41,138 bases of DNA from an uncultured Saprospiraceae bacterium (GCA_937941765.1 CALDGQ010000022.1:1-41138); one strand, 5' to 3'. Positions 5,060 through 38,219 are shown, counted from the stretch's first letter. Made by a program: numbers and translations. The notes: a model not told the origin generated them from the letters alone.

Positions 5060-6120
5060 CGCTCCATCAAATTTTCATAGTGAGAAAATAAATCAGCATC
5101 ACTTTTATTGTTGACAATTTTATCAATTTGTGGACTCATTACAAAACGATTAACACCTGCTCTTTCCAAATCATTGAATTCACTATCTATATGTTTTCGA
5201 TATCCTAATAAGAATACATCACTTGGGACTACCTTATGATTGGCTTCAGCATTTATTTCCTTATTTAATAATGCTAATGATTGTTCTTGTGCTTCTTGAT
5301 AAACTAAGCGTTTCTCCGATTCTGGAAAAGCATCCAACAATAAATTTGCTAATTGAAAAGAAGGCGCATTTTTAAACCACATTAAATTTCCAATTAATCC
5401 GGGTAATTCCATTTTTGAAAGGATACCACCAATTCTATCATAAAAACAGCCACCAAAACTTTTGCTAAAACTAAAAAAGATTCCTTTTACAGAAGTATGA
5501 TTAAGGTTTACTTGTTGAACTTTATAAGTGGTTCCATGATATGCGAAGTCCAACCAAACTTGGAGTTTTTTCTCATCAGCAAAATTCAAAAATACTTCTA
5601 AATCTTTCCAATAATTCCCATCAATTGCCGAAGGTTCGCTGATGATGACCAACTGTTTTTCCATTACGTCCTTTAAGTCTTCTTCAAAATGATTTCGATC
5701 AAATGCAGTCACTGGAATTTTTGCATCTGCAGCATAATGGTAATATCCTTCATACTCACCTTTCATCAAACACATGCCGCTTCCTTTTGAAATTAGGTCC
5801 CTACAATTATTTCCAAAATGCTGAATTACATATCGAAATCCTTCACTGGATCCAGATGTCGGATACACATTTGAATACTGATCTAAATGAGAAACACCGG
5901 ATGATAACCAAGCTCTTATTTTTTCAAAGAATGAAATATGACTGAGATCTTGTGCTTTAAGGTAACTGTGACGACCAATTTGAATAGCAGCTTCTGAATT
6001 GGTATAAAACTGAGTTTTTATTTTTTCGACGGGTTGCCATTGCGGGACATAGACACCTTTGCAGAGACCTAATTTAAGTAATTCGATGTCTCTTTCACTA
6101 AGGGTTTTTGTGTAATTCAT
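5047..6120 (-). CDS. PLP-dependent aminotransferase class I/II fold protein (divergent)
   Basis: SFSKSFGGCFYDRIGG matches the SxSKxxGxxGxRxG Schiff-base lysine motif of class I aminotransferases. ISEPSAIDG resembles the PxNPxG motif, and LDFAYHG is a D/E-AY-like motif. Confidence 0.6.
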   Translation of the reverse strand: MNYTKTLSERDIELLKLGLCKGVYVPQWQPVEKIKTQFYTNSEAAIQIGRHSYLKAQDLSHISFFEKIRAWLSSGVSHLDQYSNVYPTSGSSEGFRYVIQHFGNNCRDLISKGSGMCLMKGEYEGYYHYAADAKIPVTAFDRNHFEEDLKDVMEKQLVIISEPSAIDGNYWKDLEVFLNFADEKKLQVWLDFAYHGTTYKVQQVNLNHTSVKGIFFSFSKSFGGCFYDRIGGILSKMELPGLIGNLMWFKNAPSFQLANLLLDAFPESEKRLVYQEAQEQSLALLNKEINAEANHKVVPSDVFLLGYRKHIDSEFNDLERAGVNRFVMSPQIDKIVNNKSDADLFSHYENLMERWSN

Positions 6121-6382
6121 ATGGTGGAAAATTGTAGTGTAATTTATGATTTAATTGGTTGGTAGGCAAGTGATGAGATGCACGCTTGTTTCGTTGGATC
6201 CATTTGATTATCCGCCGATGCCAGATAGTTCCTTCCTTGGCAGGAAGGACAATGCGTGAACTCGCCAGACTGTGCAAATATGCTTTCGGAAACTGAACCG
6301 CAGAATATCCAACCGTAGAATATCGAATGTCGAAGTAGAGTACGTGGACAAATAAGCATGAAATTCGTTAATATACGCTGCA

Positions 6383-6410
6383 CCCTTCCTTTTCAAAGAA
6401 GGGCCTTTTT
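6383..6410 (+). terminator. Candidate intrinsic terminator or attenuator hairpin (cccttc-N9-gaaggg followed by ccTTTTTgcTTTgc) in the leader upstream of the sensor kinase
   Basis: 6-bp GC-rich stem followed by a T-run on the + strand only. No + strand CDS lies upstream of it, so it may end a small RNA or act as a leader attenuator. Confidence 0.35.
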
Positions 6411-6547
6411 GCTTTGCATATTAGAGGATGGATCAACCCACCCGAACAAACCAAATATCCAACCGATAGTCCGATGACATTTGCCAAACTATAATCTTTT
6501 TGGTATCATTACATAGGATCATTTTTTTACAGCTTGAAGATGCTAGG

Positions 6548-9500
6548 ATGTTAAGAGGAAAAAATCTATGCTCGATCTGTTTTGCACTCTTTCTGACCAT
6601 TTCTCTGGTCGCACAGCAAAATCAAAACGACCTCATCGTTCATAAAACACCATTGTTTGAATCGGATAACAATTGGGGATTGTCGACTCGCTTTATCAAA
6701 GATTTATTTACGGACAAAGATGGGATTATTTGGATAGCCTCTTCTAAAGGGTTGATTAAATATGATGGAACCAATGCTACTGTTTTTGATAGTAGTGTCA
6801 ACAATCCATATCGCATCCATTCTGATGATATCAGAAAAGCATTTGAAATGAAAAATGGGGATTTGATTTTATATTCATTTCGATCTGGTTTGCAATTGGA
6901 GTTATTGAAAAAGGGAGCGATGCAATCTTCTAAAATTGAATTGTCGGCTAATGACAAAAAGATTGACGGCTTTTTAGCAGATGTGAGCATTTCAAAAGAT
7001 GGCGTTATCTATGCTGCTTTCAATACTGGAAAATCCATTTTGATTTATAAGCTGATTGAACATCAGTTAGAATTTTTTAGAGCTTTTAATTTTGACGCCT
7101 CCATTTTAGGAAAGAAAATAAGTATCGCACCTTATGATCGTTCGGTATGGATAGCAGTTGAGGGATTAGGCGTTTTTGAGCACTTTAATCGACAAATTAA
7201 AGTGTTAGATTTTACAACTCTTAGTGAAAGTAAATCGATTTTTCCGAATTCATTTTTTGAAGATAATCTTGGTAATTTTTGGCTTTGTTTGGAAGAATTA
7301 CAGGATAATGTTTTCAAATGGGATGGAAAAGCTTTTGAAAAATTTGAGACCCCAATTAAAGAAGAAGTTGCGCAAATTATAGAGTCAGCAAGTGGACAAT
7401 TACTTTTTGTAGCTGGTAAATATCCGGATGCTATAACCAGTACATTTGCTTTGATTGATGGAGAATGGATTGATTATACGAGTTATTTAGAAACAGGTTA
7501 TGTTAGTTTATTTCCTTCCAATGATTTGAGTAAATCATTTTTTGTTCGCACTAAAAATAATGTACTTAACATTAGTTTTACAAATAATAAAATTACCAAC
7601 TATTTGAATCAGTCATTGACCAATAATCAATGGGGTAACATTATTATGGGGGTTAACGAGGATCTTTATGGAAATATTTATTTTATTGCGGAAAGTGATA
7701 ATTTTTACAAACTTGAAAAGGAAAGTAAAGAACTAACAAGAATTCCAATCATTGAATCAAATGGGGAAGAGCTTCAATTTGGTTGCGGAATGGCGATTCA
7801 CAGAGATAGCAAAGGGCAATTGTGGTTTGTCGCCTGTGATCGGGAACGTCGTGGTATCTTGATTAATTACAATCCTGGATCTAATAAGTTTAATTTCGTT
7901 TTTCATAAACATTTGATTAGAGGGATTCACATTGATGAAAATGATGTAATCTGGACGGTCCATAATAATGAACAAGTAGAAGTAGGTGTATTGACTTCTT
8001 ACAATATCGCTACCAAAGAAATTACCGACATTCCATTATCAGCTGCTTTTGTAGAGCCGCGTTTTTGCTATTCCAACAATATAGATTCTACCTTGTGGAT
8101 TGGGACGATGAAAGGACTCATTTCAGTCAATAAAACGACTTATGAAATGAAAACCTATAATGTAGAAAATAGTTTTTTGAAAAGTGATCGGATTATTTCA
8201 ATGTTAGATCATGACGGCAATAAATTGTTGACAGGTACATTTGGAGATGGATTACAAATTATTGATTTTGAAAACAAAAATGCAACCTTAATTGGGAAAG
8301 AAGCAGGGTTGTCAAATAATTTTGTTTGCGGAATCATTCCAATTGACAAAAGTAATTATTGGTTGAGTACTTTTAATGGATTGAGTTTTTGCAATATTGA
8401 AGATAAGACGGTTATCGAATATGGAGAAGCAAATGGGTTTGCACATTATGAATTTAATCGCCATGCCTATTTTCAAGCTAGTGATAGTACGAATTATTTA
8501 GGATCTGTCAATGGAGCAAGTTCTTTTTTAACAAAAGACTTACTACCTGAAAAATCGAATGCTTCAATTGGAATTTCTTCTATTAAAAAATATTATGGTA
8601 AAAAAGATACGATAGAAGTACTGAAAGGAAGTCATGAAAATTTCGATCAAATCGTATTATCTCCAGATGTTACTTATCTAGAAATAGATTTTTTTCAAAC
8701 AAATTTTAATGGTTCTCAACAACCTAAATTGTATACTCGGCTGACACCTTATGATGATAATTGGGAATATGCTGGAGAACATAAAAGGGTACGATATCGA
8801 TTGCTTCCACCAGGTACATACGATCTTGAAGTTAAGAATCAATTTAGCACTCAAATAAAAAAACTTAAGATTATTTCTGAAACACCGTTTTACAAACAAA
8901 TCTGGTTTCCAATCGCTGTAGTTTTAGGAAGTGCATTGTTTTTTTATGGTTTATATAGAAATAGAATTAAGAAAGTAAAGGCAGAAGACAAGGCGAATCA
9001 GGAGATTAATAAAAAATTTGCTGCACTCGAATTACAAGCATTACAATCTCAATTGAACCCTCATTTTATTTTCAATGCATTAGGTGCTATCCAATATGCG
9101 ATTCGTGAAAATGATAATCAACGTGCAGAACATTTCTTGACCAGTTTTGCTTCTTTGATGCGTTTGTTTTTAGAGTCTTCTAAAAAGAAACATATTTCTG
9201 TTGCGGAAGAGATTGAACTGATAAGTAAATATGTAGAGTTAGAGCAACTACGTTTCAATAATCGGTTTGATTTTGAATTTAATATCGATGAAAAAATAGA
9301 TATTTACAACACAGAGATTCCGTCTTTACTTTTTCAGCCGTTTGTAGAAAATGCAATAAATCATGGGTTATTTCACAAAAAAAATCAAGGTCTTTTGCAA
9401 ATTAATATTCAGATTGAAGATGACAAGTCCTTACATTGTATCATCGAAGATAATGGGATTGGACGTGTTAAATCTGCTGAAATAAAGAAAAGATCTATCA

Positions 9501-9646
9501 ATAATCATGTATCCAGGTCGACTCAAATTGTAAACGAAAGAATTGAAATTTTACAAAAAGTAGAAGACTTAGATTTGAATATTGAAATTCAAGATTTACT
9601 AGAAGGTACAAGAGTTGTGTTGGATATACCAATACAGTCTGATTAA
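6548..9646 (+). CDS. Sensor histidine kinase, LytS/YehU-type (His_kinase + HATPase_c), with a large periplasmic two-component-regulator beta-propeller (Y_Y_Y-like) sensor region
   Basis: The start was chosen at the in-frame ATG at 6548 (MLRGKNLCSICFALFLTISLVAQQ, a signal-peptide-like sequence) rather than the ORF-track start at 6500. The propeller region is ~780 aa, rich in W/G/Y, and followed by a TM helix (IWFPIAVVLGSALFFYGLY). It is followed by the LytS-family H-box QLNPHFIFNALGAIQ and a GHKL ATPase region (ENAINHG…DNGIG). Confidence 0.85.
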   Translation: MLRGKNLCSICFALFLTISLVAQQNQNDLIVHKTPLFESDNNWGLSTRFIKDLFTDKDGIIWIASSKGLIKYDGTNATVFDSSVNNPYRIHSDDIRKAFEMKNGDLILYSFRSGLQLELLKKGAMQSSKIELSANDKKIDGFLADVSISKDGVIYAAFNTGKSILIYKLIEHQLEFFRAFNFDASILGKKISIAPYDRSVWIAVEGLGVFEHFNRQIKVLDFTTLSESKSIFPNSFFEDNLGNFWLCLEELQDNVFKWDGKAFEKFETPIKEEVAQIIESASGQLLFVAGKYPDAITSTFALIDGEWIDYTSYLETGYVSLFPSNDLSKSFFVRTKNNVLNISFTNNKITNYLNQSLTNNQWGNIIMGVNEDLYGNIYFIAESDNFYKLEKESKELTRIPIIESNGEELQFGCGMAIHRDSKGQLWFVACDRERRGILINYNPGSNKFNFVFHKHLIRGIHIDENDVIWTVHNNEQVEVGVLTSYNIATKEITDIPLSAAFVEPRFCYSNNIDSTLWIGTMKGLISVNKTTYEMKTYNVENSFLKSDRIISMLDHDGNKLLTGTFGDGLQIIDFENKNATLIGKEAGLSNNFVCGIIPIDKSNYWLSTFNGLSFCNIEDKTVIEYGEANGFAHYEFNRHAYFQASDSTNYLGSVNGASSFLTKDLLPEKSNASIGISSIKKYYGKKDTIEVLKGSHENFDQIVLSPDVTYLEIDFFQTNFNGSQQPKLYTRLTPYDDNWEYAGEHKRVRYRLLPPGTYDLEVKNQFSTQIKKLKIISETPFYKQIWFPIAVVLGSALFFYGLYRNRIKKVKAEDKANQEINKKFAALELQALQSQLNPHFIFNALGAIQYAIRENDNQRAEHFLTSFASLMRLFLESSKKKHISVAEEIELISKYVELEQLRFNNRFDFEFNIDEKIDIYNTEIPSLLFQPFVENAINHGLFHKKNQGLLQINIQIEDDKSLHCIIEDNGIGRVKSAEIKKRSINNHVSRSTQIVNERIEILQKVEDLDLNIEIQDLLEGTRVVLDIPIQSD

Positions 9647-9667
9647 ATTTTGATGTATAATGTTAAG

Positions 9668-9862
9668 ATGTATGATTTATGATATGACCGTTGTTGCGTC
9701 AGGCTGTGCGAAAATTCCCAAGAGCAAAGAGGTTAGAAACCTTTTGCTCGAATACCGTGTGTGTTACGAGATGAAGGTTTCTAACCTCTCATCTCCTACG
9801 AGTATTTTCGCACAGTCTGGCGTGTGCATACAAATCGGCTGTCATATCATACATCATACATT
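9668..9862. repeat. About 195 bp of extended imperfect palindrome with three nested inverted repeats, occupying the kinase-regulator intergenic space
   Basis: Outer arms: atgtatgatttatgatatgaccg (9668-9690) against cggctgtcatatcatacatcatacat (9837-9862). Middle arms: ggctgtgcgaaaat (9702-9715) against attttcgcacagtc (9804-9817). Inner arms: gaggttagaaacctt (9729-9743) against aaggtttctaacctc (9774-9788), a perfect 15-mer. The 69-aa ORF 9660-9869 lies inside this structure and is probably spurious. Confidence 0.55.
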
Positions 9863-9926
9863 CAAATGAACGAAGTGATTTAGAAAAAAATCATACACCC
9901 ATTACTTAACTACAGAAAACAATAAA

Positions 9927-10670
9927 ATGATCAAAACATTATTGGTCGATGATGAATTACTTTCGATTGAAAACTTGAAGGAAAGTATAATATCTAATTT
10001 TCCGAATTTAGAAATCGTAGGGACTGCTCAAAATGCAGATGAGGCGTTTGATTTAATAAATACCTTAAAACCGGAATTGGTTTTTCTGGATATTGCCATG
10101 CCTGGAGCAAGCGGATTTGATTTGTTACGAAAATTACCTGAATTAGAATTTGAGGTAATATTCGTTACCGCATTTGACCAATATGCAATGGATGCCATCA
10201 AATTTTGTGCAATCGGTTATGTACTGAAGCCTATCAATAAGGAAGAGCTTTTACATGCCGTTCATCGAGCTGTTAAATCTATTGGCCAAAAAAACGAGTT
10301 TAATAGAAACGTACAATTATTGGAGAATTTGGTCAATCCTGGCAATCAAAACAATCGTATTGGTATTCCAAGTCCTGATGGATTAGAGTTTGTGTCTATT
10401 CACGAAATTATCCGGTGTGAAGGAGTGCAACGATACACCAAAGTGTTATTTAAAGATCGAAAGGAACTTCTAAGTTCTTATAATTTAGGAGAGTTTCGTC
10501 GGTTGCTTGAAAACTATGGGTTTTATTCCGTTCACAAATCCCACCTTGTTAATTTGAATCATGTCAAACGTTATGATAAGGAAGGATTTGTGCAAATGAC
10601 TGATAATTTTAATGTTCCAGTTGCACGCAGAAAGCGACAAGATTTTATGCAATTTTTGACAAGGATTTAG
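9927..10670 (+). CDS. LytTR-family response regulator (CheY-like receiver plus LytTR DNA-binding domain)
   Basis: Receiver motifs (LLVDDE…, phospho-acceptor region LVFLDIAMPG, …KP) and a C-terminal LytTR domain (IRCEGVQRYTKV…YSVHKSHLVNLNHV). It sits immediately downstream of the LytS-type kinase. Confidence 0.9.
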   Translation: MIKTLLVDDELLSIENLKESIISNFPNLEIVGTAQNADEAFDLINTLKPELVFLDIAMPGASGFDLLRKLPELEFEVIFVTAFDQYAMDAIKFCAIGYVLKPINKEELLHAVHRAVKSIGQKNEFNRNVQLLENLVNPGNQNNRIGIPSPDGLEFVSIHEIIRCEGVQRYTKVLFKDRKELLSSYNLGEFRRLLENYGFYSVHKSHLVNLNHVKRYDKEGFVQMTDNFNVPVARRKRQDFMQFLTRI

Positions 10671-11039: not shown

Positions 11040-12056
11040 TCAACTTAGTGTACCCAAATAATCTTCCATTAAACTTTTTGATATTTTATAGGCATCCGTA
11101 ATCTGCAATTGGAATACCTGATCCAGCTGAAGATCGTTGTCTGTCAGCTCAATATTATTTTTTAATTTATAAAGTGTGTTTAAACTTTTCGAAAAATGAT
11201 GACCTCTCAAATATTTGAAATATAAATAATTACCACGCTCATTGATTAAGGCATGATATGGTGCATTTTCCATCTGATTCAAATCTATATCTTGAACCTC
11301 ATTAATTTTAACAATTGAATTTCGTTTGCCTTCTATTAATTGGTCACAATTTTCAGTAAGACTAAAAACAACTTCGGGTGTTGGTTTGATCTTGAAGTGG
11401 ATGCTGTTAGATTCCTTTTGATTAATTTTTAATACAGCAAAAGAAACTTCGTGAGAATCATTATCCAATGCCACGAAAATAGTTTTTCGATGAGCACACA
11501 ATTTGCGATCATAATGACCCGTAAAAATATACCGTGTGGGAATATCAAATAATCTAATTCTTCTTTTCAGTTGTGCATGAGCCAAAACAATATCGTACGG
11601 TTCCTGATTTGCTTCAATCAACGTTTTTAGTTTCTTCTTGAATTTGGAACAACTGTAAGGAATACCTAAAATGCTTAAACCACCAATCTCGACTTTTTTA
11701 TTATTAATATCTTGCGAATACTGTAAGCTTTCCGAAAATGCAACAACTTGATTGTAATACTTCGGATCGTCATGATTTCCACTTATAAACAGCGACGGAA
11801 TTTTCTTTCTTTCCAAAAAGGTGAGTAGTAAATTGAAGGCATGATGAAAACCATGACCACATGAACCATCACCAGTGATATCACCTGCAAATAAAACTAG
11901 GTCTGCTCGTTCATCTTCTACAATTTGGAGATACCGATAAATTCTTTGATAACGAGGAATGGAAATACGGGAAGGATCAAAAGAAAGCACTTCACTTTCG
12001 GTCATCGACCTTAGGTGAGATTCCCAATTTAAATCGCTCAATACAAGAATATTCAT
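11040..12056 (-). CDS. Calcineurin-like metallophosphoesterase with a ~120-aa C-terminal extension of unknown function
   Basis: Metallophosphoesterase motifs in order: ILVLSDLNWESH (D/H), LVLFAGDITGDG (GDxxD), FISGNHDD (GNH[DE]), VLAHAQL, FTGHYDRK (GH). Confidence 0.8.
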   Translation of the reverse strand: MNILVLSDLNWESHLRSMTESEVLSFDPSRISIPRYQRIYRYLQIVEDERADLVLFAGDITGDGSCGHGFHHAFNLLLTFLERKKIPSLFISGNHDDPKYYNQVVAFSESLQYSQDINNKKVEIGGLSILGIPYSCSKFKKKLKTLIEANQEPYDIVLAHAQLKRRIRLFDIPTRYIFTGHYDRKLCAHRKTIFVALDNDSHEVSFAVLKINQKESNSIHFKIKPTPEVVFSLTENCDQLIEGKRNSIVKINEVQDIDLNQMENAPYHALINERGNYLYFKYLRGHHFSKSLNTLYKLKNNIELTDNDLQLDQVFQLQITDAYKISKSLMEDYLGTLS

Positions 12057-12114
12057 TGTTAAATATTATCGTATTGAGCGATTAAATGGGTAAATGTTTT
12101 TGAGAAAATAATCA

Positions 12115-35976: not shown

Positions 35977-36037
35977 TTAGATGTTTTTGTTAATCATTTC
36001 TTGGTTTACCTTTATTTCTAGGAAGTTTTTTTTTTGT

Positions 36038-36199
36038 TTTTTACCACTAAGCAGGTTTTACCACTAAGAAGGTAAGGCACTAAGAGGGACTAAGATCAGG
36101 TATAGTTTCTGAGATTTATTTAAGTAATTTTTGGGAAGTCTTTTATGTTTTTTTACCACTAAGAAGGTAAGGCACTAAGAGGGATTCAGATCAGGTATA
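36038..36199. repeat. Direct repeats with a ~96-bp period upstream of the multiheme cytochrome gene
   Basis: Two 48-49 bp copies (36056-36104 and 36151-36199; 44/48 identical, with 34 consecutive identical bases ttttaccactaagaaggtaaggcactaagaggga) plus a partial third copy (36038-36060); the motif cactaag recurs within each copy. Confidence 0.6.
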
Positions 36200-36284
36200 C
36201 TTCCTGCGTTGTTTTGCGCTTTCTGCGTGAGGCATTTTAAGAAACAAGAGCATCGGAATATCAGAAAAAGTCGTAATTTCCCAC

Positions 36285-38219
36285 ATGTCTTATTCCAGAA
36301 AAATCGTCTATTTATTATTGTTAGGAATTGCAATGACACTTGTATTTTGTCAGCGAGATGCTGTTGTCGAAACAAATGCAAATACGTATCAAAATTTACA
36401 AGATTCAGTCGCTTATATGGGTATGCAAACCTGTAGAAGTTGTCATAACAATATCCATCAAACATTTATAGAAACAGGTATGGGGCAATCTTTTGATCAT
36501 GCTACTCAACAAAAAACAGCCGCAACTTATGGAGCTCATGCAGTGGTCTATGATAAGAAATCAAATTTTTATTACCAACCTTTTTTTAGAGATTCGATTT
36601 TATATGTGATGGAATATAGATTGGAAGGAAAAGACACGATTCACAAAAGGATTGAAAAGATTAGCTACATCGTTGGGTCAGGTCACCACACCAATTCCCA
36701 TATTATTGACGAGAACGGATATATTTTTCAGGCACCGATTACTTTTTACACACAAGAAAAGAAGTGGGACATGGCGCCAGGTTTTGAAAAAGATAATTTA
36801 CGTTTCGAACGTTTTCTAACAACGGAATGTATCACTTGTCATAATCATTTCCCAACTTTTGTAGAAGGCTCCCTGAATAAATTTGAGTCCATGCCTTCTG
36901 GTATTGAATGTGAGCGATGTCATGGTCCGGGTGAGATTCATGTACATGAAAAATTGGCAGGAAACAACATCGACACCTCACAGTATATCGACTACTCCAT
37001 CGTTAATCCAACAGATCTTTCACGAGAATTGCAAATGGACTTATGCCAACGTTGTCACTTGCAAGGACTAGCAGTATTGGAAGAAGGGAAAACCTTTTTT
37101 GACTTCAAACCAGGAATGGAATTGTCTAGTATAATGAATGTATTTTTACCTAGATATACGGATTCTCATGAGAAATTTATCATGGCTTCTCAAGCAGATC
37201 GATTGCGATTGAGTAAATGCTATACCCAATCCGAAATGACCTGTTTGACCTGCCATAATCCCCATCATAGTGTTAGGAAGTCAGAAAAAAATGATTTTAA
37301 CAAGCCATGTATGTCTTGTCATACCACCAAAAAAGTAAATGAATGCAGTGTACCTTTGGCTGAACGTGCTCAAAATAATAATAATTGTGTCAGTTGTCAT
37401 ATGCCACCTTCAGGAAGTACGGATATCCCACATATCAATATTACAGATCATTACATAAGCAAAGTGACTTCCGTGAATACTTCAAAAAATACATCTGATA
37501 AAATTAATACAAAAGAGAAAAATTCAATTGCTCGGTTTTTAGGACTGAAAATTTTGACAAAAGAAAAAGCTACTTCATTAGACATGGCTCGTGGATATAT
37601 TGCTATGTATGACAAAAGTGTAGAAGCAGATGCTATTTTGGATTCCGCCCATTATTATTTAATTCAAGCGAATAGTATCAATGATTTGACATTTAAAACG
37701 TGGATTCATTATTATTTCGCAAAAAAAGATTTTAATTCGATCATACAAAAATCAAAAGGGGCTTCCGCTGCATCAATACAGGATGGATGGACTGCTTATC
37801 GAATAGGAGAAGCTTATCTCAAAAATGGAGATTCCAACAAGGCGCTTCCTTATCATAAAAAAGCAACTTCATTGATGCCTTTTAATTTAGATTTTCAAGA
37901 AAAATTGGGAATCACACAAGTTTATTTACAACAGTTGAAAGCAGCACAAGAGACCTTTAATTTTGTGTTGAAAGAAAACTCAAAACGACCGATTGCTCTG
38001 TGTAATTTGGGTTTTACGAAAGCATTAGAAGGTGATTTTAAAATTGCAGAAAAATATTACAATCAAGCCATTCAATTAGACCCAGATTATGAACAAGCTT
38101 TGGTTAATAAAGCAGCATTATTAAGGCACTTGAAAAGAGAAAACGAGAGTAATCAATTGTTTAAGCGCGTATTGAAAATCAATCCTAATAACGAACAAGC
38201 AAGGCAATTTTTAAAATAA
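36285..38219 (+). CDS. Heptaheme c-type cytochrome fused to C-terminal TPR repeats; probable lipoprotein or periplasmic protein
   Basis: Seven CxxCH motifs read in the translation (CRSCH, CITCH, CERCH, CQRCH, CLTCH, CMSCH, CVSCH). N-terminal hydrophobic leader with an LVFC lipobox-like sequence. The C-terminal ~250 aa contains TPR-like repeats (…AYRIGEAYLKNGD…, …NLGFTKALEGDFKIAEKYYNQAIQLDPDY…). Confidence 0.85.
   Translation: MSYSRKIVYLLLLGIAMTLVFCQRDAVVETNANTYQNLQDSVAYMGMQTCRSCHNNIHQTFIETGMGQSFDHATQQKTAATYGAHAVVYDKKSNFYYQPFFRDSILYVMEYRLEGKDTIHKRIEKISYIVGSGHHTNSHIIDENGYIFQAPITFYTQEKKWDMAPGFEKDNLRFERFLTTECITCHNHFPTFVEGSLNKFESMPSGIECERCHGPGEIHVHEKLAGNNIDTSQYIDYSIVNPTDLSRELQMDLCQRCHLQGLAVLEEGKTFFDFKPGMELSSIMNVFLPRYTDSHEKFIMASQADRLRLSKCYTQSEMTCLTCHNPHHSVRKSEKNDFNKPCMSCHTTKKVNECSVPLAERAQNNNNCVSCHMPPSGSTDIPHINITDHYISKVTSVNTSKNTSDKINTKEKNSIARFLGLKILTKEKATSLDMARGYIAMYDKSVEADAILDSAHYYLIQANSINDLTFKTWIHYYFAKKDFNSIIQKSKGASAASIQDGWTAYRIGEAYLKNGDSNKALPYHKKATSLMPFNLDFQEKLGITQVYLQQLKAAQETFNFVLKENSKRPIALCNLGFTKALEGDFKIAEKYYNQAIQLDPDYEQALVNKAALLRHLKRENESNQLFKRVLKINPNNEQARQFLK

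Follow-up and report, generated by a model that had tools for sequence, protein, structure and literature searches.

In a 41,138-nt contig of an uncultured Saprospiraceae bacterium (GCA_937941765.1, CALDGQ010000022.1; this whole stretch is hereafter called the window), the spacer between a sensor histidine kinase gene and the LytTR-family response regulator gene that follows it is largely occupied by an imperfect palindrome of 194 nt. [quoted passage not shown] A REP/MITE-like repeat is the best reading because homologous loci lack the palindrome and because the palindromes found in the same spacer of relatives are dispersed repeats. Elements of this kind are ordinary, with precedent in REP, ERIC and Correia sequences; of mild interest is that such palindromes recur at one site. 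The locus is organized as follows.

6548-9646, + strand: sensor histidine kinase gene (Reg_prop / Y_Y_Y / His_kinase), from the open reading frame (ORF) call and Pfam
9647-9926, + strand: kinase-regulator spacer, 280 nt, from the end of the kinase ORF (9646) to the regulator ATG (9927)
9668-9861: imperfect palindrome (the element), 194 nt, from a repeat finder, arm alignment and minimum free energy (MFE) fold
9927-10670, + strand: LytTR-family response regulator gene, 247 aa (Pfam Response_reg and LytTR)

The ORF calls confirmed the kinase stop at 9646, the regulator start at 9927 and the 280-nt gap that had been reported by an earlier description made from the DNA alone (the sequence-only reading). 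The native share of this spacer amounts to ~86 nt, namely 9647-9667 and 9862-9926, and the sequences flanking the element are ...ATAATGTTAAG on the left and TCAAATGAACG... on the right. The parts of the palindrome and the arrays associated with it are listed below in order of position.

9647-9683: degenerate 7-nt-period array, ~5.3 copies, consensus ATTTATG (Tandem Repeats Finder, TRF)
9668-9688: outer arm on the left side (terminal inverted repeat, ATGTATGATTTATGATATGAC), pairing with 9841-9861 at 20 of 21 positions
9696-9715: left arm of the middle helix (GCGTCAGGCTGTGCGAAAAT), forming 20 consecutive pairs with 9804-9823 in + strand RNA, 3 of them G.U
9728-9744: left arm of the inner helix, 17 bp, in which 9729-9743 is a perfect 15-mer; inside unit A (9723-9750)
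9773-9789: right arm of the inner helix; inside unit B (9768-9795)
9804-9823: right arm of the middle helix, containing GCACAGTCTGGCG (9810-9822), the reverse complement of a 13-mer in the leader of the kinase gene
9824-9835: asymmetric 12-nt bulge in the right arm only (MFE fold), faced on the left side by 2 nt (9694-9695)
9841-9861: right outer arm, including a 7-nt-period array ATCATAC, 2.3 copies, at 9846-9861 (TRF)

Aligned to each other, the arms of the palindrome were 72% identical over 207 columns (E = 4e-24). Both the repeat finder and the fold bore out a long imperfect hairpin of three nested helices, and the lengths first given for them (23, 14 and 15 bp) were roughly right: in the MFE fold the outer helix is composed of 9 bp (9668-9676/9853-9861) and 11 bp (9678-9688/9841-9851), the middle one of 20 bp and the inner one of 17 bp, 15 of which form a perfect DNA palindrome, while an apex helix is placed at 9747-9755/9761-9770. 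On the + strand the spacer folded at -107.7 kcal/mol, an energy reached by none of 200 shuffles (z = -12.1), and the - strand gave -100.3 kcal/mol (z = -9.7), so its structure is far beyond chance. Units A and B can each fold alone as a 12-bp stem-loop; their stems differ in sequence and they have a common core in inverted orientation. The alternative in which the tip is resolved into three hairpins costs ~12 kcal/mol (-85.4 versus -97.5 kcal/mol for the single long hairpin). The GC content of the element core is ~45%, versus ~27-31% in the flanks.

The spacer was compared across ten kinase-regulator loci, the window counted. The nearest homologues of the regulator were 75, 72, 70, 68 and 66% identical to it, and regulator homologues place the contig in a sparsely sampled Saprospiraceae-like lineage of the Bacteroidota. 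In every homologous locus compared, from these regulators and several more distant ones, the gene of a large Reg_prop/Y_Y_Y kinase came first and that of a LytTR regulator of 247-248 aa next, and in none of them did the two genes overlap. It had been supposed that such pairs normally overlap or abut, which does not hold in this homologue group, where the spacers measured 44-497 nt and were never of zero length:

Unstructured AT-rich spacers (fold z of at least -1.1): L084, 44 nt; L056, 98 nt; L055, 101 nt; L086, 140 nt; L088, 193 nt; L085, 246 nt
Palindromic spacer, window: 280 nt, fold z -10.6 in this comparison
Palindromic spacer, L062: 318 nt, fold z -5.6, -120 kcal/mol
Palindromic spacer, L081: 483 nt, fold z -5.8
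Palindromic spacer, L059: 497 nt (504 nt in L060), fold z -11.3, -168 kcal/mol

The presence of a spacer is a trait of this homologue group and not of the two-component systems of the clade generally, since a second, paralogous kinase-regulator pair situated just downstream in L054 (3240-5019) and L056 (5538-9417) has genes that overlap by 14 nt. Within the group, the palindrome was absent from L055, L056-58, L084, L085, L086 and L088, whose regulators are at most 70% identical to that of the window. The spacers of L055 (101 nt) and L056-58 (98 nt) were AT-rich, with MFE values of -8 and -12 and z of at least 0.2. Once 9668-9861 is removed, the window spacer retains 86 nt; because this remainder is near the 98-101 nt of these closest complete spacers, the palindrome is extra sequence in this lineage, and the L055 and L056 spacers look like empty sites. 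In a base-by-base alignment, the excised window spacer was too divergent from the empty sites for the exact junction to be fixed.

The second line of evidence comes from the relatives in which the same spacer is palindromic. The palindromes of the window, of L059 and of L062/L081 had no sequence similarity to one another; L062 and L081, whose regulators are 85% identical, carried the same palindrome family, so that ~3 independent acquisitions are counted. These spacer palindromes of relatives are dispersed repeats. In L059, an inner layer of the palindrome (5732-5815) matched a second sequence at 8633-8723 with 92% identity over 91 nt (E = 6e-27), placed in another intergenic region with unrelated flanks and differing in the copy number of one 10-nt sub-repeat. 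Since this inner layer recurs elsewhere, the nested palindrome of L059 is a composite of separate units and, by analogy, the three nested helices of the window element may be layers of different origin. Similarly, the spacer palindrome of L062 (1277-1376) matched both L062 5176-5288 and L081 1366-1489, the copy at L062 5176-5288 being closer to the L081 spacer copy than to the spacer copy of L062 itself, and a further fragment was found in L080 (18358-18387, matching L081 1365-1394).

The families of the relatives (TTGTAACTATTCAGCTGTTGGC... in L059 and GGGGTTTTAAGGGGCGGCGTCGG... in L062/L081) resemble the window element in occupying the same spacer position, in forming a GC-rich nested hairpin and in belonging to the same clade; they are unrelated to it in sequence, and extra copies were found of theirs and, in the searches made, none of that of the window. 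The palindromes always lay at the kinase end of the spacer, and 65 nt or more before the regulator ATG stayed free. In a ranking of 72 intergenic regions from 9 loci by the most stable 200-nt fold, places 1, 2, 4 and 5 went to the spacers that precede the regulator, and only one further region fell below -80 kcal/mol. This ranking points to the spacer as an insertion hotspot, although ~3 independent events are not proof of it.

Just as the outer arms of the window element are degenerate 7-nt-period arrays, those of the L059 palindrome are formed by heptamer or hexamer sub-repeats, and comparable ones were found at the broken end of L054. Intergenic tandem heptamer arrays were also observed in L080, as ~23 copies of (CAACTAA)n at 8182-8344, and in L059, as (AAAATGT)n at 8790-8820. 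The left end of the window element (9651-9683) matched the last 40 nt of the L061 contig, which comes from the closest relative and represents another locus, with 88% identity over 33 nt (E = 5e-4). Nested palindromes that are GC-rich and dispersed and have arms made of heptamer arrays appear common in Saprospiraceae-like genomes, a clade for which no description of such palindromes was found in the literature. As a separate observation on these loci, the regulator P0014 has the kinase upstream in L081 (1208-1690) and L083 (343-825), and in L080 (9151-9583) an unrelated gene on the opposite strand occupies this place; the sequences of L080 and of L081-L083 diverge within or beside the spacer palindrome, and the L080 junction is due either to rearrangement or to a mis-join made at this repeat.

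The proposal of a REP/MITE-like repeat family, already advanced by the sequence-only reading, is therefore supported by the extra sequence and by the dispersed repeats of relatives at the same site, but no second copy was found in the window or in the collection scans. Several results weigh against it. There was no second full copy of the element in the 41 kb of the window. Scanning a genome collection with the degenerate 19-mer CGYCAGRCTGTGCRAAWAT gave at least 52 single matches in many phyla, approximately the number expected by chance, and none of the 52 genome loci listed was homologous to the element beyond the 19-mer pattern. No target-site duplication was present at 9668/9861, nor at boundaries shifted by 1-2 nt, and no transposase, RAYT or recombinase was encoded among the ORFs of at least 100 aa in the window. 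The left 7-nt-period array extends upstream past the palindrome boundary, which fits a local origin at least equally well, and the match to L061 consists of low-complexity heptamer sequence. The strands, by contrast, are mildly suggestive in its favour: all six transition differences in the main helices appear as G.U on the + strand, which is 7 kcal/mol more stable, and none as A.C. This asymmetry has the same direction in L059 but was absent in L062 and L081, and a mutation bias linked to transcription could be another source of it.

Further searches were likewise negative. A metagenome scan with a two-arm pattern retrieved 15 palindromes with common CTGTGCAAAAAT arms, none of them related to the element, and no copy was found in viral contigs (middle-arm and outer-arm patterns) or in plasmids and phages (blastn). 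The fold and covariance search that had been proposed as a check gave a strong fold but no Rfam family: scanned with Rfam 15, the whole window gave no match at the gathering score, the stretch 5900-10100 gave none even at E <= 10, and seven related loci gave none either. No tRNAs were found. Independently of the window element, and unrelated to the window, five metagenome contigs caught by chance with the two-arm pattern, L071 (2781-2905), L073 (2277-2401), L076 (984-1107), L077 (1559-1683) and L079 (7629-7753), carried a common conserved structured element of ~125 nt, reading GAGTCTGTGCAAAAAT ... AGAGTTCCGAAGGAACGAAAGAATCCTAGCCC.GGGTGAAACCC.GGG ... ATTTTTGCACAGACTC, which looks like a conserved RNA or the end of a mobile element.

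The sequence-only reading had also linked the palindrome to the leader of the kinase gene. The 13-mer CGCCAGACTGTGC occurs once on each strand of the window, at 6263-6275 (+) and 9810-9822 (-); the shared word noted earlier does exist, and its leader position had been given three bases off, as 6266-6278. It forms part of a longer match:

6257-6284, + strand: leader stretch of 28 nt, 82% complementary to 9801-9828, with the exact 13-mer at 6263-6275

Within the 427-nt leader, none of 500 dinucleotide-shuffled spacers equalled this match; across the rest of the window 113 of the 500 (23%) matched equally well, a result that also weighs against the repeat reading. The claim that the 13-mer exceeds chance therefore stands when the comparison is restricted to the leader and fails window-wide, the match being significant only if the leader was chosen beforehand because 113 of 500 shuffles equal it over the window. 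The link between leader and palindrome is thus suggestive rather than established, and the 28-nt stretch may be a piece of some related repeat or may match by chance.

The description of this leader as structured was not upheld, its fold standing out from shuffled sequence on neither strand (z = +0.17 for + and -1.41 for -). Its GC content is 46-49%, versus a background of ~32%, and is thus high like that of the palindrome core; its short ORFs look non-coding. It was also observed that the leader contains, at 6296-6325 and 6454-6465, a 15-nt tandem repeat (AACCGCAGAATATCC, 1.9 copies) and, twice and 150 nt apart, the 12-mer AATATCCAACCG. LytTR regulators typically bind direct repeats, and those of the leader could be a candidate autoregulatory operator, judging from their sequence.

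Under the reading as a palindromic repeat, the element would be co-transcribed with the operon on the + strand, and its transcript would form a coaxial hairpin ~75 bp long, whose helices measure 20, 20 and 17 bp and whose energy is -97.5 kcal/mol. Between the kinase stop and the hairpin lie 21 nt, and 65 nt separate its end from the regulator ATG. The hairpin is probably no intrinsic terminator because no U-tract follows: the stem is succeeded by TCAAATGAACG, and there were no terminator-like sites in 5900-10100, so that the suggested attenuation, if it were by intrinsic termination, has no sequence support. More likely than termination, the hairpin would act as a barrier to 3'-exonucleases, as a substrate of RNase III, or as both; hairpins of this sort stop 3'-exonucleases and are cut by RNase III. 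Either action would separate the fates of the two cistrons, the kinase part being stabilized and the read-through to the regulator lowered or uncoupled, in which case the regulator would likely need its own promoter, within the spacer or close to it. Such effects have precedents: an intra-operon REP of E. coli behaves as a partial terminator that limits read-through and as a stabilizer of the upstream mRNA (bioRxiv 10.64898/2026.03.23.713779), and REPs and MITEs beside genes are commonly transcribed, fold in the mRNA and either stabilize or destabilize it (PMC3733652). By analogy, uncoupled expression of kinase and regulator would be the most likely effect, and it may be small or neutral.

A sigma-70 promoter scan returned promoter-like sites at chance level. 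Clear Bacteroidota -7 boxes (TAnnTTTG) were present in four homologous spacers (L055, L056, L059 and L062); the window has a single full match to TAnnTTTG, inside the kinase gene at 9570, and a near-match, TAAATTTT, at 9644, and the promoter of the regulator was not placed.

An alternative explanation holds that the hairpin is a selected cis-regulatory RNA, an insulator acting through differential decay, RNase III processing or translational uncoupling, for which lineages recruit whatever palindromes are available and which is kept for its function. We regard this as possible but rather unlikely. Three unrelated palindrome families in the same spacer of 4 of 10 lineages would be expected of it, as would ranks 1, 2, 4 and 5 of these spacers among the 72 intergenic regions and the constant placement at the kinase end with the stretch before the regulator ATG left free. 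It would also agree with the greater stability of the sense strand, by 7 kcal/mol in the window and by 15 kcal/mol in L059, and with window transition mismatches that are all G.U on that strand. However, 6 of the 10 lineages, including the closest ones with complete spacers, lack a hairpin, L062 and L081 present no strand bias, and the same repeat families are also found in ordinary intergenic regions. Moreover, the enrichment derives from ~3 independent events in 9 loci, no Rfam family was matched, and the window element is a single sequence, so conservation and covariation are not measurable for it. In its strongest form, in which the kinase-regulator spacer would be a selected docking site and independent lineages would domesticate unrelated palindromes as an intra-operon insulator setting the kinase:regulator ratio, the idea is decidedly doubtful. 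Weaker still is the possibility that the leader 13-mer, complementary to the right middle arm on the same mRNA, rivals the left arm for pairing and so switches the hairpin. If the spacer were a preferred or selected landing site, it would offer a natural system for learning how inserted hairpins retune the stoichiometry of a two-component system with no change of protein or promoter.

It is also conceivable, albeit improbable, that the palindrome arose by local inverted duplication, a replication strand-switch or fold-back having copied the native spacer together with its heptamer microsatellite, after which the arms diverged to 72% identity. The left array (9647-9683) indeed runs unbroken from the kinase stop codon into the left outer arm, and its counterpart on the right is shorter; related genomes commonly contain heptamer arrays (for instance L080 8182-8344 and L059 8790-8820); and the lack of a target-site duplication and of a second copy in the searches made would follow naturally. 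Yet a copied spacer should resemble its source, and the core has ~45% GC versus ~30% in the flanks and in the homologous native spacers. The same-site palindromes of relatives are dispersed repeats, and units 9723-9750 and 9768-9795 keep their own pairing on different stems, which makes them more like a related pair of stem-loops than like mirror copies.

An inverton, in which a recombinase would act at the 21-nt inverted repeats and turn round the 152-nt segment that they enclose, switching the regulator on or off, seems very improbable. The repeats match at 20 of 21 positions, are 152 nt apart and lie directly upstream of a regulator in a Bacteroidota genome, and an independent assembly breaks inside the segment. 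Nevertheless, it is unlikely because the whole interior is palindromic, so that inversion would change little, and because no recombinase gene is found in the 41 kb; besides, there is no clear TAnnTTTG box inside the segment, the assembly break falls at the apex and not at the repeat boundaries, and the counterparts in relatives are dispersed repeats.

Finally, an assembly artefact or chance feature can practically be dismissed: the contig does come from a metagenome-assembled genome, in which chimeric fold-back reads can make palindromes, but an artefact would be perfect, whereas these arms differ by substitutions, indels and the 12-nt bulge, an independent assembly reproduces the right half with its flank exactly, and a fold z of -12 against shuffles speaks against chance. 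This independent sequence, the Logan contig L001, is identical to the window from 9766 on and starts exactly at the palindrome apex; hence, with imperfect arms and an independently identical right half, the palindrome is no fold-back artefact. In L001 (window 9766), L054, L061 and L063, short-read contigs ended at the regulator or shortly before it, as would be expected of repeats or hairpins, and the element accounts for the breaks of short-read assemblies just upstream of the regulator.

The element also affects annotation, since one ORF falls within it:

9660-9869, + strand: 69-aa ORF within the palindrome, entered in the public record as a 65-aa hypothetical protein (P0121)

This ORF belongs to no Pfam family and had no homologue among 5.8 billion protein clusters, where P0121 matched only itself. 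It is most likely a spurious gene call, and the 65-aa hypothetical protein annotated inside the element is almost certainly spurious. As to the neighbouring kinase, its ORF was mechanically started at a TTG (6500), and the likely true start is the ATG at 6548 (MLRGKNLCSICFALFL...); the protein has ~1030-1048 aa and the Pfam domains Reg_prop, Y_Y_Y and His_kinase.

Other repeats and conserved blocks were observed around these genes. Downstream of the regulator, a 60-nt non-coding block was found in L062 (2445-2504), L081 (2627-2686), L080 (10520-10579), L063 (910-970) and L085 (10941-11000). It was 97% identical between lineages whose regulators have clearly diverged, and between L062 and L081 the similarity reaches ~85 nt at 92%. 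In L081, L080 and L085 the block sits upstream of the nqr operon; it is absent from the window and gave no Rfam match at the gathering score. This block may be a conserved regulatory site or a small RNA. In the window, an AT-rich palindrome at 12029-12086, with 25-nt arms 88% complementary and an 8-nt loop, overlaps the 5' end of a Metallophos gene (11040-12056, - strand). Farther downstream, a ~95-nt unit is present as a tandem pair at 36013-36215 (65 nt at 88% identity), with internal sub-repeats of 17 nt and 10 nt (TTTTACCACTAAGAAGG; AGGCACTAAG); the pair is intergenic and lies upstream of a TPR/multihaem-cytochrome-like gene (36285-38219).

Among known systems, the window element can be set beside those of several phyla. 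In the manner of MITEs, it is 194 nt long, has no coding capacity, ends in terminal inverted repeats that match at 20 of 21 positions, and is present or absent at homologous sites. The cyanobacterial repeats offer one parallel: Elhai et al. in 2008 reportedly described small dispersed palindromic repeats, with units of ~21-27 nt, nested in one another and in heptamer arrays. The window element and that of L059 are alike in having palindromes nested in palindromes and associated with heptamer arrays, and in L059 the inner layer is an independent unit. The differences are the other phylum, the lack of any sequence relation and the much shorter cyanobacterial units; moreover, serial nesting was seen in L059, whereas for the window it is inferred.

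REPs and the mosaic elements that they form (BIME) are also GC-rich palindromic units, occur in inverted pairs and follow closely on a coding region within an operon, and units A and B of the window resemble a head-to-head REP heterodimer; the role proposed for REP/BIME inside operons, as stabilizer or partial terminator, is likewise the same (bioRxiv 10.64898/2026.03.23.713779). REP units measure 20-40 nt, those of the CGTC type have stems of 8-9 bp, and they bear a conserved terminal tetranucleotide, GTAG or CGTC (PMC3733652). The units of the window, by contrast, are 28 nt long with 12-bp stems, are embedded in two further helices and carry no such tag, and no RAYT gene is present in the 41 kb. 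A CGTC does occur at 9697-9700, in one arm of the middle helix only, the other arm reading CGCC. Membership among the CGTC-tagged REPs was ruled out by the unit size and by the lack of a tag on both arms.

In overall design the element also resembles the Correia/NEMIS elements of Neisseria and the ERIC/IRU elements of enterobacteria, which are MITE-like long-hairpin repeats, non-coding, 100-200 nt long, imperfectly palindromic over their whole length and bounded by terminal inverted repeats (PMC2229807, PMC10969869). Like the window element, they are placed between co-directional genes, where they would be expected to be co-transcribed and to form in the RNA a long hairpin that changes how the mRNA is processed or how stable it is. 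The window element differs from them in sequence, in having no TA or other target-site duplication and in having been seen in one copy, as well as in its Saprospiraceae-like Bacteroidota host and in outer arms built of 7-nt-period sub-repeats.

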